This document shows positions 58,893-64,000 of a stretch of 64,000 nt of DNA, piece by piece. Below the pieces are notes generated by a model. The model ran no database searches. It was not told the DNA's origin and worked only from the letters and a program-made list of their open reading frames with translations. Both the position numbers and the translations under genes were made by a program. How positions within the stretch are numbered: the first letter of the stretch is position 1; each line of letters begins with the position of its first letter. This DNA comes from a virus. Lineage: Duplodnaviria > Caudoviricetes. Where the stretch lies: the IMG/VR virus record IMGVR_UViG_3300021255_000040, positions 32,001-96,000 of that record, one strand, 5' to 3'.

Positions 58893-58900
58893 TACCTTTG
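58893..58900 (+). promoter_or_regulatory. Bacteroidota -7 element of the giant gene
   Basis: TACCTTTG(C). Confidence 0.7.
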
Positions 58901-58928: not shown

Positions 58929-61900
58929 ATGGTATGTGTAGATAAAAAAAGCCCTGAGTTCCTGAGGTTAGCCAGACGCATGAATCTGGATGCTAACATA
59001 CTGGAGCAAATCATACATAAATACTACAGAGAGTCTGGTCAGGAGGAGCTTTTCCCCACTGATGTGTATGTCAATGCTCAGTTAGGGAGAACTCAGTACG
59101 AGGAGGCTATGCCCACTGTCAGACAGTTTTGGGAAAATGCTTACAGTCAGCCTAAGACTTTCAGTTCTGAAGGTGAATACAAACGAGCTTGGGTTCAGGC
59201 TATCAATTATTTTCCTAAGGAAGCTATTGTCAATTACAAAGATACTAATGGCAACTTTATTCTGGCAGTAAGGAGACCTGTGGAAAAGCTTGAGAAAAAC
59301 TCCAAGGGAATGATGATTGTGACTGATGCAGAAGGTAACAGACTGCCTATGCTGTCACATCAAGAAGCCAGGGATTATGCATTAATTACCAGTCAATTGT
59401 TGCCTGATTCAGAAAAAAGTAGTACTTTTGCAGCTGATATGCGAAGTGTAACTGAAAACCAGGACTACATCTCAGATTCTCTGGATGCAGCAATGAAGAC
59501 TGGTAGGTGGAATGACCAAGCTATAAAGGATTTAGAGAAACTAATTAAAAAGATACAAGATGGAGAAGTTGATTTTAAGCGAACAGTGGGAGAAAGATTC
59601 TCCTTCACGAAAGGCATCTCTGAAGCACATGCAGCAGCATCCCTTATCACAAGAGGATCTTATGGAGCAAGTCAAGCAAAATCAGGAGCTGCGAAAGAAA
59701 TATATGACAGAGATGCAGCCCAAGGCAGGCAGCAAGAAAGGCTGATAGAAGCATGGGCAAAGGCAGCTGACCTTTGGGTTAATGACTATACAGATGCACA
59801 AGGCCATAAAGCTAATAGTCTTGAGGGCTTAATGCACAGTCAATGGCAGTATATGGATCAGGCATCTGAAGCTGAAGTATTCAGATATGATGATACTCAA
59901 GTCATTAAGTCAATTAGTCTGTCACACTCCAATGACAATGTGGCTAAGCTACTTGACAGAATAGCTCTTTTCAATCAACTATTCCCTGAGACAGCTCTTA
60001 CCATTCAAGGATTTGGCAGAGACAAGCTGGGACACTTCAGGGTTATTGCCACTCAGAATCTTATTAATGGTAAGGAGCTGACTGATGAACAGCTCAAGAA
60101 GTTCCATGATAAGTATAAGCTTAAGGAGCAGGGTGCTTGGTTTGTCACTCCTGATGGTACAGCTCTTATCAATGACTTGACCAATGCCAATGTCATGATT
60201 GATGAGCAGGGTAACTATTATGTCATTGATGCTGATGTAGTCTTCAACACTCCTGAAATGGGTGGTAAGGTTCTTTTTGATAATTCCTTTGAGTTTCATC
60301 AGAAAGAAAGACCTGCCAGAAAGGAACGTCAGGTGATTGGCCCACAGCCATTTACATTTAATGATGGTACTGTAGTTACTGTTCCCTTCAAGCCCAATGA
60401 GCAACAGGCAGAGGCTCTAAATGCCATGAATGACTTCCTCAACTCTGATGAGACTACCATGACTCTATCAGGTTATGCTGGTACTGGTAAGACCTCGCTC
60501 ATGGAGATTATTGCTCAGAAGGCAAAGAGACAGCATAAACCCATCATGTTCAGTGCTACCACCAACAAGGCTGCTGCTGTCTTGAAAGCAAGAGTCTCTA
60601 AGGCAGGTTTTGATGCTCAGACACTGAACAAGGTATTTGGTATTAATGTAGAAGTTGATTCTTCCAAGGCTTATAATGCAAGGAACCTGGTTACTGCTTT
60701 GAGAGATGCTGACATCATGCCTGGCACTACAGTAGTCATTGATGAAGCCTCTATGATTAATGAGGAGAACTATAGAATCCTCAACAGAATAGCCCGTGAG
60801 AATGGTCTGAAGATTATCTATGTTGGTGATAAGGCACAGCTTGCTCCAGTCAATGAGACTCAGGTCTCTAAGGTATTTAGAAACTCTGAAGGCAGGGTTG
60901 TAGAGCTTACTCAGGTAGAGCGTACTGATGACAATGCTATCCTTAAGGAAGCTACTAACATCCGCAATGGCCTGCCTCTGTCTGGTGAATCTAGTTTCAA
61001 TGAAAGAGGTGAAGGTGTAGGGTATCTTACTCCTAAAAGCCGTGATGAGATTGGTAAAGTTATCAGGCACTACATCCAAGGACTCAAGGATAATCCTAAC
61101 TTCTTCAGGATTCTGGCTTATACTAATAAAAAGGTAACAGAGTACAATGACTTTGTGAGAACTCTCCTTGGTTACACAGACCCTATTCCTCATGTTGGTG
61201 AACCTCTGACAGGTTACAATAACTGGGGTTATGACTGGAGAACTAAGAGTTATAGATTCATTAACTCTGAGAGCTATAAAGTTACAAGAGTTGGCAAACC
61301 TGCACAGTCTAAAATTTCTGTGAATGGTCAGGAGTTTACTATGACCTATGTTCCTGTTACTATGGAGAACTCTCTTGGTGAGAGTGACACCTTTAATTAT
61401 ATGGATATTAAGGGTAATCAGGAGAATAGACAAGCAGCTCTTCAACTGGCTACTCAGAAGAAAACTCTGTGGGAGCAATATAGACGTGCTGTTGGTAGAG
61501 AGGCTAAAAGTAACATCTTATCCCAGATTAACTCTATTGACCAGTTCCTCTTTGTCAATGACAATATTGAAGACCCAACTACTCATAATCTGCTCCAGCC
61601 TAAGACTGTAGATTTTGGTTATGCCCTAACTATCCATAAGTCCCAGGGGTCTACTTTCACTCATGTTCTCATGGATGATATTGATGTGGCAAAAGCAGGC
61701 AACACATTAAACAATGCTGCCAATGCTATGTCTGTAGTTGACTTGGGTGATGCAGGAATGGTTGCTGATGCTTCTATGGAAATGAGGGGCTCTGAGGATG
61801 TTGACTTAGGTGATTTGTCCTCAGTTCCTGCTGAAGAGCCATCTAGTAGTAATCCTAATATTGCTAATGTTCGTCAGCAGTTGGAATATGTAGGTGTATC

Positions 61901-64000
61901 AAGGGCTACCAATACTGTCACTATTATATCTAATAATGTAAAGACAGAAGGCAGTCCTTTGACTCCTCAGAACTTGATTAGTAAAGAGGACAGTAATCCT
62001 TCTAACAATGAGGTTCAAGGAGAGAATATTGCCTCCAATGGCTCAGAGTTTGCCAAGAAACTTACCAATCCAGGCAATAACTTGCAGGTAGAGTACAAAG
62101 GCAAGACCTTTAGGAATGCAGAACATGCCTATCAGACATGGAAGTCTGGAGAATTTGATGAAGTAGCTTATAATAGTACAGCTTTCAAGTCTAAAGGTAG
62201 TAAACCTGCCAACAAACAGACTAACTATCAGACTATGGTAGATATACTCAAGGCTAAACTCCAGCAACATCCAGAACTGGTTGAAGGAATTACACAGAGA
62301 GGCGGAGAGGAATACCTTAAAGCCTCTACCCATAAGGTTACTGGTGACAAGTATTGGGAATCTACAGGCCAAAATAAGTTCATCGAGGCTCTTACTGAAG
62401 CTTACAATGCAATAAACCAAGGAGATAACCGTTCTAATGAAAAGACCAATCTGATTGCAGCAACTATTGGTCCATATTTCAATACTTCCTATGAGGATTA
62501 TATGGCTATGGTTCCTGAGAAACAAAAGGAGATGAGAGAAGCCTTTGCTAAAGCTGCTCATGAAGTAGCAAAAGCATTGGGCATTCCTCTTGATATGAAG
62601 CAGGCTTCTTTCAATATTGGAGGCTATGAGTTTGAAGATGGAAGTTCTGTTATAGAACCGAGTTTTACTTTTAGATTTGGAAAAGATGCTACTCCCGAAC
62701 AGGTAAGAATGTTTGCAGCTCTCATGGGAGATTTAGGATATGAACAACAAGAAGCTGTAGTTACTAGTTGGGATGTAGCAAATGAAGAAGAAAGGGATGG
62801 TGATAGACACTTTATTGAATTCAAAGAAGAGGAACTGCCACTACTTAAGCAGTTTGGAATTAAAAATTTTACCTTTGATAAAACAAGAGGTGTTTTGTCT
62901 GTCCTAAGTTTTGATACCAAAGATGTAGAGAATTTTTATAAATTAGTAGAAACTATAAAACAAAAAGAGAATGGACTTGAAGAAACTCAAAGAAGAAACC
63001 CCAGAAGAGCGTCGTTTAAGACTTTCTATGATGAGAAAGAAGGAAGAAGAGCTTTGTACGAAGCTTGGAGTGTCAATGCCAAAGACAGAAGTGCCGAAGA
63101 AGGAAGACCCTCTGGAAGTGACAATCTCGTTCAAGAAGCACTAGAAAAGCTTCAAAATAGAGAGTTACCCATTGATAGAGAAACTCCTACTGAACAACCA
63201 CAGAAAGTGTCTCTACCCAGCTATGAATATTTCATGGACAGGTATGAAGATACTACTGTGGATGCTGTTTGGAAGATTCCATTGCTTCAGCAGTTAGATT
63301 CACAACTGACTACTGAACTGACTCCTGAAGAGAATAATGAGATTCTTGACAGAATGACAAGGATTCTTGAGGCAAAGTCTCAGGAGGATTTGTTGGACTT
63401 GCAAACTGAAGAACCTAAAGAAAAGAAAACAGTGGAACAAAACCTCACTGAGTTTGAGAAGATGACCCAACAGATTAATAACCTGTTGGACAGTAACATC
63501 ATCTCTGCTTCTGAGATTAGACATGTGGCTGAACTGGTGGTTAACTCCATCAGTGACACCATTACTATTCTACAGAAGGAAGATGGTGCTGCTGAGAAGT
63601 TCTTCCCTAACATTGAGACCAAGATTGACTTTAAGACAGCTTCTCGTAAGGATATAGTTGAAGCCATTGGTATTAATAACCTCATTCACAGAGCCAAGCA
63701 GCAGTTTGACCCTGAACAGAATGACTATGAGGACTTTGATACCATTGACCAGGCTGACCTTATTATAGACAACTGGGATGCCATTATGACTCTTGCTGCT
63801 GATACCTTTGCTATGACTGAGGGATTTGGTATCATGAGAAATTATGACAATGGTGGCTTCAACACTACTCAGGCTTCTACCATTGACTATGATAACTTCA
63901 ATGATTATAGCAACGACTCAGATGCTATGGCTGAATCAGAGAAGGATGAACAGGAGCATTGGCAGGTAGAGCAGAGAACTATTGATGTGCTGAACTCTAT
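58929..64000 (+). CDS. giant polyvalent protein (partial, about 1690 codons in window): kinase, Dda/RecD-like SF1B helicase, NADAR, possible SAM-lyase-like domain
   Basis: Open frame from MVCVDKKSPEF to the window end. Kinase: EAEV..VIK..LFPET..NDL..ANV..IDAD. Helicase: GYAGTGKT, DEASM, VGD.AQL, TIHKSQGSTF, YVGVSRA. NADAR: FRNAEHAYQ..K, AKLQQHPEL, DKYW. Confidence 0.9.
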   Translation, partial: MVCVDKKSPEFLRLARRMNLDANILEQIIHKYYRESGQEELFPTDVYVNAQLGRTQYEEAMPTVRQFWENAYSQPKTFSSEGEYKRAWVQAINYFPKEAIVNYKDTNGNFILAVRRPVEKLEKNSKGMMIVTDAEGNRLPMLSHQEARDYALITSQLLPDSEKSSTFAADMRSVTENQDYISDSLDAAMKTGRWNDQAIKDLEKLIKKIQDGEVDFKRTVGERFSFTKGISEAHAAASLITRGSYGASQAKSGAAKEIYDRDAAQGRQQERLIEAWAKAADLWVNDYTDAQGHKANSLEGLMHSQWQYMDQASEAEVFRYDDTQVIKSISLSHSNDNVAKLLDRIALFNQLFPETALTIQGFGRDKLGHFRVIATQNLINGKELTDEQLKKFHDKYKLKEQGAWFVTPDGTALINDLTNANVMIDEQGNYYVIDADVVFNTPEMGGKVLFDNSFEFHQKERPARKERQVIGPQPFTFNDGTVVTVPFKPNEQQAEALNAMNDFLNSDETTMTLSGYAGTGKTSLMEIIAQKAKRQHKPIMFSATTNKAAAVLKARVSKAGFDAQTLNKVFGINVEVDSSKAYNARNLVTALRDADIMPGTTVVIDEASMINEENYRILNRIARENGLKIIYVGDKAQLAPVNETQVSKVFRNSEGRVVELTQVERTDDNAILKEATNIRNGLPLSGESSFNERGEGVGYLTPKSRDEIGKVIRHYIQGLKDNPNFFRILAYTNKKVTEYNDFVRTLLGYTDPIPHVGEPLTGYNNWGYDWRTKSYRFINSESYKVTRVGKPAQSKISVNGQEFTMTYVPVTMENSLGESDTFNYMDIKGNQENRQAALQLATQKKTLWEQYRRAVGREAKSNILSQINSIDQFLFVNDNIEDPTTHNLLQPKTVDFGYALTIHKSQGSTFTHVLMDDIDVAKAGNTLNNAANAMSVVDLGDAGMVADASMEMRGSEDVDLGDLSSVPAEEPSSSNPNIANVRQQLEYVGVSRATNTVTIISNNVKTEGSPLTPQNLISKEDSNPSNNEVQGENIASNGSEFAKKLTNPGNNLQVEYKGKTFRNAEHAYQTWKSGEFDEVAYNSTAFKSKGSKPANKQTNYQTMVDILKAKLQQHPELVEGITQRGGEEYLKASTHKVTGDKYWESTGQNKFIEALTEAYNAINQGDNRSNEKTNLIAATIGPYFNTSYEDYMAMVPEKQKEMREAFAKAAHEVAKALGIPLDMKQASFNIGGYEFEDGSSVIEPSFTFRFGKDATPEQVRMFAALMGDLGYEQQEAVVTSWDVANEEERDGDRHFIEFKEEELPLLKQFGIKNFTFDKTRGVLSVLSFDTKDVENFYKLVETIKQKENGLEETQRRNPRRASFKTFYDEKEGRRALYEAWSVNAKDRSAEEGRPSGSDNLVQEALEKLQNRELPIDRETPTEQPQKVSLPSYEYFMDRYEDTTVDAVWKIPLLQQLDSQLTTELTPEENNEILDRMTRILEAKSQEDLLDLQTEEPKEKKTVEQNLTEFEKMTQQINNLLDSNIISASEIRHVAELVVNSISDTITILQKEDGAAEKFFPNIETKIDFKTASRKDIVEAIGINNLIHRAKQQFDPEQNDYEDFDTIDQADLIIDNWDAIMTLAADTFAMTEGFGIMRNYDNGGFNTTQASTIDYDNFNDYSNDSDAMAESEKDEQEHWQVEQRTIDVLNS
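59423..59430 (+). promoter_or_regulatory. internal Bacteroidota promoter inside the giant gene
   Basis: TTG at about 59400, 20-nt spacer, TACTTTTG(CA). Confidence 0.6.
59560..59745 (+). CDS. nested +1-frame 61-aa ORF overlapping the kinase N-terminus
   Basis: A-rich leader, upstream internal promoter, local codon and CG shift in the main frame. Confidence 0.55.
   Translation: MEKLILSEQWEKDSPSRKASLKHMQQHPLSQEDLMEQVKQNQELRKKYMTEMQPKAGSKKG
62971..63144 (+). CDS. nested +1-frame 57-aa ORF (MDLKKLKEETPEERRLRLSMMRKK...)
   Basis: Leader AACTATAAAACAAAAAGAGA-ATG; TACCTTTG at 62870-62877; CG-enriched overlap. Confidence 0.5.
   Translation: MDLKKLKEETPEERRLRLSMMRKKEEELCTKLGVSMPKTEVPKKEDPLEVTISFKKH

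Follow-up and report, generated by a model that had tools for sequence, protein, structure and literature searches.

The giant gene that runs off the downstream end of the 64,000 bp stretch of phage DNA analysed here (the window; bases 32001–96000 of the 123,180 bp virus record IMGVR_UViG_3300021255_000040, which has direct terminal repeats) carries a second open reading frame (ORF), of 61 codons and in the +1 frame, inside the coding sequence of its Kinase-PolyVal module. Comparison with homologues of the module indicates that this nested ORF, at 59560–59745, is very probably a real protein-coding gene that forms a unit with the kinase. A preliminary description of this DNA had placed a nested ORF at these positions, where an ATG-started +1-frame ORF of 61 aa is indeed found, and had read the module as a captured two-gene operon with its promoter intact, a proposal to which we return below. 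The coordinates of the features discussed are collected in Table 1.

The DNA of kinase homologues was obtained as 8 loci from protein hits, 33 loci from viral and genome collections, most of which are stand-alone open frames of 257–283 aa from rumen Prevotellaceae and other Bacteroidales, and 80 metagenome loci. A phylum-wide sample supplied 23 loci from an even set of 301 Bacteroidota genomes (14 with the kinase). Across approximately 135 kinase loci, fused and stand-alone, an ATG-started +1-frame ORF of 50–80 codons was found in all intact kinases but one. In the first set, 40 of the 41 sequences include such an ORF (50–73 codons) in the same place, and in 38 of them the ATG falls in a single alignment column, where it is made up of an xAT codon and the G that starts the next codon. 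The column is conserved despite T-ending codons accounting for only 40–70% of the N, D, H and Y codons in these genes. In two sequences (L014 and L015), the ORF starts at an ATG six codons further upstream. The +1 ATG occupies the same column in approximately 130 loci and is usually directly preceded by a +1-frame stop codon. According to the preliminary description, the captured-operon proposal would fail if stand-alone homologues in Bacteroidota lacked an overlapping ORF. They do not lack it: stand-alone Kinase-PolyVal genes include the +1 ORF in approximately 29 Prevotellaceae genomes, a +1-frame match to the peptide profile was obtained in 79/79 informative metagenome loci, and the ORF is present in 16/16 intact kinase genes of the phylum sample, where it ends just before the kinase core. 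The positives in the phylum sample include kinases of 210–237 aa that are distantly related to the module in the window.

The overlap also bears a distinctive pattern of nucleotide change. When synonymous codon differences were counted pairwise at residues identical in the kinase frame, the six sequences of the window's clade gave 0.59 upstream of the nested ORF, 0.136 in the overlap and 0.53 in the kinase core. The corresponding values for 27 Prevotellaceae sequences were 0.46, 0.099 and 0.54, and seven sequences from a distant clade gave 0.20 in the overlap and 0.53–0.65 in the core. The 3–5 fold drop in synonymous change in the kinase frame is confined to the nested ORF and recurs in three independent clades. 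A 12-codon sliding window placed the trough at aa 208–267 in both the window's clade and the Prevotellaceae, matching the ORF, and the trough ends earlier in the clade with an ORF that is six codons shorter. The drop begins 6–9 codons ahead of the +1 ATG.

The differences that do occur in the overlap peak at position 1 of the kinase-frame codons, where the +1 frame has its wobble position. In the Prevotellaceae, differences at the first, second and third codon positions were 0.198, 0.094 and 0.098 in the overlap versus 0.125, 0.079 and 0.539 in the core, and the wobble switches to the +1 frame likewise in the distant clade. Within the overlap, the +1 peptide is at least as conserved as the kinase-frame residues, with identities of 0.54 versus 0.32 for the window and L007 and 0.40 versus 0.28 in the distant clade. 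In the kinase core, out-of-frame identity is approximately half of in-frame identity. The metagenome set gave weak support in the synonymous analysis; it consists mostly of near-identical human-gut sequences and its upstream part is noisy. Taken over all clades, these comparisons show that the kinase frame and the nested frame have both been under purifying selection over approximately 180 nt. We also considered, and rejected, a lack of translation of the kinase frame in the overlap, as this frame is open in all intact loci, has normal coding periodicity upstream of the +1 ATG and must be read through in the fused genes.

Among the loci compared, the small gene persists where the kinase core has been lost or broken. 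A profile of the small protein matched 736 called proteins of 55–116 aa in a collection of 5.8 billion proteins, 0 of which include a Pfam domain. Four of the 736 were looked up and three proved to be orphans (loci L046–L050). In these loci, the small ORF is intact (66–83 codons) and the kinase core is absent from all. What is left of the kinase frame reaches a stop codon after 45 codons in L046, is cut right after the WAK motif in L047–L049 and has no start in L050. One orphan variant recurs on 42 contigs and neighbours the gene of a VapE-like primase that belongs to a mobile element. When orphans were compared with their nested relatives, differences at the +1 wobble position were 1.5–2 times those at the other positions in most pairs.

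In an alignment of the small proteins, the N-terminal stretch is hydrophobic, the Ser of a conserved [H/R]-P-x-S turn is invariant, one Gln is conserved and the tail is basic. AlphaFold, run with 45 sequences, predicted three helices (residues 2–12, 14–26 and 31–52; mean pLDDT 77). The sequence ahead of the ATG is also distinctive. In 59 distinct leaders, the A fraction is 0.48 versus 0.31 upstream of other ATGs in the same genes, and it is at least 0.64 at −1, −2, −3, −5, −7, −9 and −12 to −14. In this respect, the leaders resemble the initiation context reported for Bacteroidota.

Several points weigh against a nested gene, or limit what can be read from the counts above. All of the support for the nested gene is from sequence comparison. 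Many of the loci from the same clade are close relatives and the pairwise counts take no account of phylogeny, so there are fewer independent observations than the locus counts imply; more weight is due to the replication of the signal in three clades that differ in nucleotide sequence. The stand-alone kinase P0006 (L004) is intact and its nested ORF has decayed, with at least five stop codons, so a kinase can exist without a nested copy of its own. Approximately 5 kb upstream of P0006, a polyvalent gene includes a kinase module with an intact 53-codon nested ORF. In the window itself, 14.5% of the synonymous reshuffles of the kinase frame leave the +1 frame open, which is at chance level. The giant ORF includes 13 ATG-started ORFs of at least 40 aa in the +1 frame, and two of these exceed the nested one in length. 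The corresponding probability of the +1 frame remaining open under synonymous reshuffling is 0.00–0.11 per Prevotellaceae sequence. The remaining 12 +1-frame ORFs of the giant gene are 41–87 codons in length (e.g. 61348–61611 and 62971–63144) and were comparable to one relative only, L002, which is 90–100% identical over 61348–61611 and approximately 20% identical over 62971–63144. No second copy of the small gene was found elsewhere in the phage genome. Single-genome statistics neither support nor refute the nested ORF, and its significance is to be judged from its homologues alone.

If the nested gene is expressed, the small protein would be initiated independently at its own ATG, behind the A-rich leader that has no Shine–Dalgarno sequence, on either the long mRNA of the giant gene or a short transcript from the promoter-like box at 59423–59430. 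The small protein would then bind the kinase. We tentatively suggest, at somewhat less than even confidence, that it acts as a kinase inhibitor or antidote. An antidote would protect the producing cell from a kinase that would be destined for another cell, and nesting would ensure that it travels with the kinase through module shuffling. Both the orphans and the decay of the nested ORF in P0006, which has a second copy nearby, fit the antidote reading, though a fit of this kind is no proof. The broader proposition that every Kinase-PolyVal module of Bacteroidota and their phages has its own +1-frame antidote, and that the orphans in Bacteroidales mobile elements are immunity genes directed against incoming kinases, is a more doubtful extension.

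Two points count against an antidote. The small protein had no match in Pfam, PHROGs or PDB folds (Foldseek) and no usable hit in the ESM Atlas, and only isolated weak DUF hits were returned when 18 members were checked for domains. In particular, it matched no known antitoxin or immunity family in the Pfam, PHROG, PDB fold and Atlas searches, which did not extend to PADLOC and NCBIfam. In addition, the orphans may represent remnants of recent deletions, as opposed to immunity genes maintained by selection.

The main alternative to an inhibitor is an activator, chaperone or adaptor. More generally, the nested gene may be real and its product something other than an inhibitor, namely an activator, an assembly or packaging chaperone, a substrate adaptor or a protein with a function unrelated to the kinase. 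We regard this as possible, if doubtful. The evidence that the gene is real is silent on the role of the protein, and the orphans, in which it occurs without a kinase in cis, would fit an unrelated function too. However, loss of an obligatory activator beside an intact kinase, as in P0006, would be unexpected, as would its wide retention after loss of the core, and the strict family-wide linkage argues for a functional tie to the kinase. Neither point is decisive.

It is also conceivable, but highly improbable, that the overlap is constrained as a nucleotide-level element, such as a recombination site for cassette swapping, an RNA structure or a regulatory site, and that the open frame is a by-product. 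Such an element would suit the exchange of the kinase cassette among related giant genes, as described below, the cassette recombination proposed for polyvalent and polymorphic-toxin loci (PMC5512222), and the location of the stretch near the 5′ end of stand-alone genes. However, a nucleotide-level element would constrain the three codon positions equally, whereas the observed differences concentrate at the +1 wobble position. The nucleotides diverge widely between clades, yet the ORF, the ATG, the position of the stop codon, the [H/R]-P-x-S motif and the conserved Q are all kept, and the end of the trough tracks the end of the ORF, falling earlier in the clade with the shorter ORF.

Still less probable is a frameshift product, in which ribosomes slip from the kinase frame into the +1 frame and stop at 59745 to yield a truncated, dnaX-like product with a trans-frame tail. 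The +1 ORF does lie within a frame of the same strand that is translated, and coupling of the frames is conceivable in L008 and L051, in which the kinase frame becomes open precisely at the column of the +1 ATG and offers no ATG ahead of the core. However, the feature that is conserved in approximately 130 loci is an ATG and not a slippery site, the leader is A-rich like an initiation site, the orphans start at their own ATG with the kinase frame closed, and gene callers have called the small protein independently 736 times.

The least probable explanation is a chance ORF with no second protein, in which the open +1 frame would reflect no more than the hydrophilic character of the kinase frame there and its scarcity of Leu, Ile, Val and Met codons. 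Three observations are in its favour: the reshuffling result for the window, the low-confidence loops in part of the overlapped region of the kinase-frame model, and the restriction of the giant gene's 13 alternative-frame ORFs (at least 40 aa) to the +1 frame, in keeping with the need of +1 stop codons for Leu, Ile, Val or Met codons. However, composition cannot yield a 3–5 fold synonymous drop that is limited to the ORF in three clades, and it leaves unexplained the switch of wobble periodicity to the +1 frame, the ATG in the same column when T-ending codons are so far from universal, and survival of the ORF where the kinase frame is broken.

Returning to the protein-coding gene and its kinase as a captured operon, the proposal stands in part. 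The kinase module (approximately aa 170–455) was found at many positions in giant proteins, for example at residues 1600–2800, and also as stand-alone proteins of 200–340 aa. Comparison of the window (58929–62015) with L002:3001–7584 revealed mosaic identity: 57–83% over aa 1–120, 23–50% over the kinase module, 90–100% over the helicase and approximately 20% past aa 1029. We conclude from this mosaic that related giant genes have exchanged the kinase cassette, and modules of giant genes seem to be swapped as cassettes. Judged from the loci compared, the kinase and the nested small gene form one inseparable, portable unit, which is found free in Bacteroidota behind a TAnnTTTG promoter and fused in frame in giant polyvalent proteins of phages and mobile elements. 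The occurrence of the unit in both states and the exchange of the cassette agree with the capture of a two-gene operon, and are compatible with either direction of the event, free to fused or fused to free.

The preliminary description also noted a promoter-like site and an internal start codon ahead of the kinase module. Both are present, the former as TTG at 59400–59402, a 20 nt spacer and TACTTTTGCA at 59423–59432 inside LLPDSEKSSTFAA, and the latter as an in-frame ATG at 59439, which is M171 of the giant ORF that starts at 58929. The equivalent start of stand-alone kinases is at approximately aa 179–183. Bayley et al. are said to have defined, in 2000, the primary-sigma promoter of Bacteroidota as a −33 TTTG and a −7 TAnnTTTG, with the boxes 19–21 nt apart. 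In stand-alone genes, TAnnTTTG is found 100–126 nt upstream of the +1 ATG (60/79 metagenome loci and most Prevotellaceae loci) and the kinase ATG is 79–97 or 154 nt upstream of it. The corresponding distances in the window are 129 nt for the box and 121 nt for M171. At the homologous position, the box is spelt agT-ACT-TTT-G in the window and L010, gcT-ACA-TTT-G in L009, gtT-ACC-TTT-G in L002, atT-ACC-TTT-G in L157 and cgT-AAC-TTT-G in L011. The codon before the box thus specifies S, A, V, I or R in these sequences, and its third base is always T. An ATG at 8 nt spacing is kept in L002, L157, L009 and L010, though not in L011, and the box-to-ATG spacing is 6–9 nt in three other genes of the phage.

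Other observations speak against an active promoter at this site. TAnnTTTG occurs 61 and 71 times on the two strands, where approximately 60 are expected, and 10 occurrences are in the giant ORF, so the box is found at chance frequency. The −33 element in the window is reduced to TTG, with its 20 nt spacer, and is not kept in L002; in a crude check, most of the box-bearing upstream regions of the phage were likewise without TTTG. The SEKSxTFA stretch that holds the box is conserved as protein too, and recurrence of the box in giant genes is limited to few lineages. On balance, it is nearly an even question, with the chances slightly against, whether the box at 59423–59430 would be an active internal promoter.

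Elsewhere in the phage, TAnnTTTG is found 0–39 nt upstream of the ATG of 19 genes, versus approximately 2 per 20 nt bin further off; examples in the window are at 58893, 10486 and 28235. As approximately 19 genes are preceded by a box, host-type Bacteroidota promoters appear to drive part of the genome, which suggests a Bacteroidota host. The box TACCTTTG at 58893 is probably the main promoter of the giant gene.

Table 1. Features of the giant gene and its kinase module in the window
Feature	Position	Strand	Remarks
TACCTTTG, Bacteroidota-type −7 box	58893..58900	+	28 nt upstream of the ATG of the giant ORF
Giant polyvalent-protein gene	58929..63998	+	3728 aa in the full genome; extends 6117 nt beyond the end of the window
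N-terminal domain, aa 1–125	58929..59303	+	matches residues 1–125 of dozens of 2600–5600 aa proteins
Promoter-like site TTG-N20-TACTTTTG(CA)	59400..59432	+	−7 box at 59423–59430; candidate internal or relic promoter of the kinase cassette
In-frame ATG, M171	59439..59441	+	8 nt past the −7 box; possible start of a kinase-only isoform
Kinase module, aa 171–457	59439..60299	+	N-terminal extension and protein kinase core without C-lobe
A-rich leader of nested gene	59535..59559	+	no Shine–Dalgarno sequence
Nested +1-frame gene	59560..59745	+	very probable gene; 61 codons and stop; spans residues 211–273 of the giant ORF, just before the Kinase-PolyVal match
Pfam PF18762 (Kinase-PolyVal) match, aa 268–438	59730..60242	+	77.9 bits versus cut-off of 27
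Dda/RecD-like helicase module, aa 484 to ~1010	60378..61958	+	AAA_30, 1.9e-32; phrog_325, 2e-75
NADAR-like match, aa 1041–1144 of giant protein			weak, under Pfam cut-off

The kinase module clearly belongs to the Kinase-PolyVal family. The catalytic Lys, Asp, Asn and Asp motifs could be aligned in it, and the SEAEV loop, the Lys of VxK, the DLxxxN loop and the Asp of IDAD are invariant or near-invariant columns. It ends approximately 20 residues past IDAD, and thus has the N-lobe and catalytic motifs and has lost the C-terminal subdomain, as described for the family (PMC5512222). In a genome-wide profile search, the Kinase-PolyVal match scored 81.8 bits. An AlphaFold model of aa 171–457 (pLDDT 84, pTM 0.84) had protein kinases as its best PDB matches, and target coverage was highest for the minimal kinase NleH2 (TM 0.45–0.50). 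In the part overlapped by the nested gene, the model begins with a short strand and a low-confidence loop, after which comes a short helix, predicted with confidence, that includes the ASLI motif. Another low-confidence loop follows, and then the first part of the long helix that runs into the core. The model thus suggests that the nested gene lies under a partly structured extension with loops that may tolerate change.

The giant gene is placed after replication and nucleotide-metabolism genes, and the gene content of the window includes rIIA, NrdD, DNA polymerase, thymidylate synthase and an HNH endonuclease. The kinase, a helicase and a weak, sub-threshold NADAR-like match are combined in one 3728 aa ORF, and the giant protein is a polyvalent protein sensu Iyer et al. 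2017 (PMC5512222). Its N-terminal domain had no Pfam match, and every listed hit to it begins within the first few residues of a protein of 2600–5600 aa; this domain of giant phage proteins may be a packaging or ejection signal. No family match was found for the final ~2000 aa. Megablast and tblastn searches of a phage collection returned no close relative, with a weak N-terminal match to the crAss-like phage cr116_1 as the only hit. Between L002 and the window, synonymous differences fall to 0.09–0.11 at 61761–61895 (aa 945–989), versus 0.3–0.4 elsewhere in the helicase module. This stretch is in an acidic insert of the helicase, with 23–27 sites per window of the count, and could represent noise, a recent recombination patch or another overlapping feature.

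Some of the homologous loci have features of their own. Five Kinase-PolyVal matches were obtained in the Prevotellaceae genome that includes L014 (G001; contigs C91, C75, C82 and C23), of which two share a contig at a distance of 3.7 kb, and the small-protein profile matched in the +1 frame at 4/5 of these. In L007:5002–7017, the gene for a stand-alone kinase of 338 aa, which includes the nested ORF, immediately follows that for an AAA_15/AAA_21 ATPase, and the pair is flanked by housekeeping genes. The ATPase and kinase may be a two-gene defence-type unit. In two unrelated loci (L008:6001–9898 and L051:966–3174), a kinase with the small gene adjoins a gene for a large WG_beta_rep protein. Automatic annotation has dealt with the overlap in different ways. 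At L004:945–1106 and L051:2501–2668, the small gene was annotated and the kinase gene was shortened to a downstream ATG, while in L046–L050 the small gene was annotated and no kinase gene was called. Shortened or dropped kinase calls may be a systematic annotation artefact of this kinase family.

The closest analogue in architecture is found in phage lambda, where Rz1 lies wholly inside Rz in the +1 frame, and both products are made and work together in lysis. In both cases, a small gene is contained entirely within a larger gene on the same strand, in the +1 frame. However, the two lambda proteins act in lysis and are unrelated in sequence to the pair described here, where the host gene is a kinase effector module that is shuffled into giant proteins, and where the nested gene lies over the 5′ extension rather than the body and its product is predicted. 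In proposed logic, the closest parallel is with toxin–antitoxin and effector–immunity systems. HipBA is a kinase toxin with its antitoxin, and Ross et al. are said to have described, in 2019, acquired interbacterial defence islands with orphan immunity genes in Bacteroidales. Here too, an enzyme that could do harm is closely linked with a small protein, and copies of the small gene occur without the enzyme in mobile elements. The small gene is inside the coding sequence of the enzyme and not beside it, however, and any membership of these systems would be putative.

The kinase and the polyvalent architecture are already known. Iyer, Burroughs, Anand, de Souza and Aravind described the Kinase-PolyVal family in 2017, noted its stand-alone versions in Bacteroidetes, and suggested that polyvalent and polymorphic-toxin loci recombine cassettes (PMC5512222). 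In that paper, the module is treated as a single protein domain, the word 'overlapping' is absent and no second reading frame is mentioned. We found no description of the nested gene, its family-wide conservation or its orphan copies there or in the literature searched, coverage of which was incomplete, and the nested gene is apparently undescribed.

Long same-strand nested genes are regarded as rare in prokaryotes, and one preprint describes co-directional overlaps of >60 bp as nearly non-existent (bioRxiv 724807). The unit described here would be a fully nested gene of 165–200 nt that has been kept across an enzyme family, in gut and rumen Bacteroidota and their phages, and that gene callers usually miss. 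The converse error also calls for caution in annotation, as the small gene was called and the kinase truncated or dropped at approximately five of the loci examined. At least 736 unnamed small proteins of gut metagenomes would belong to this kinase and small-gene system, and the uncharacterized Kinase-PolyVal enzymes would gain a concrete, testable partner. If that partner is a neutralizer, this suggests how giant proteins with several toxins may be made safely, with each toxic module bringing its own.

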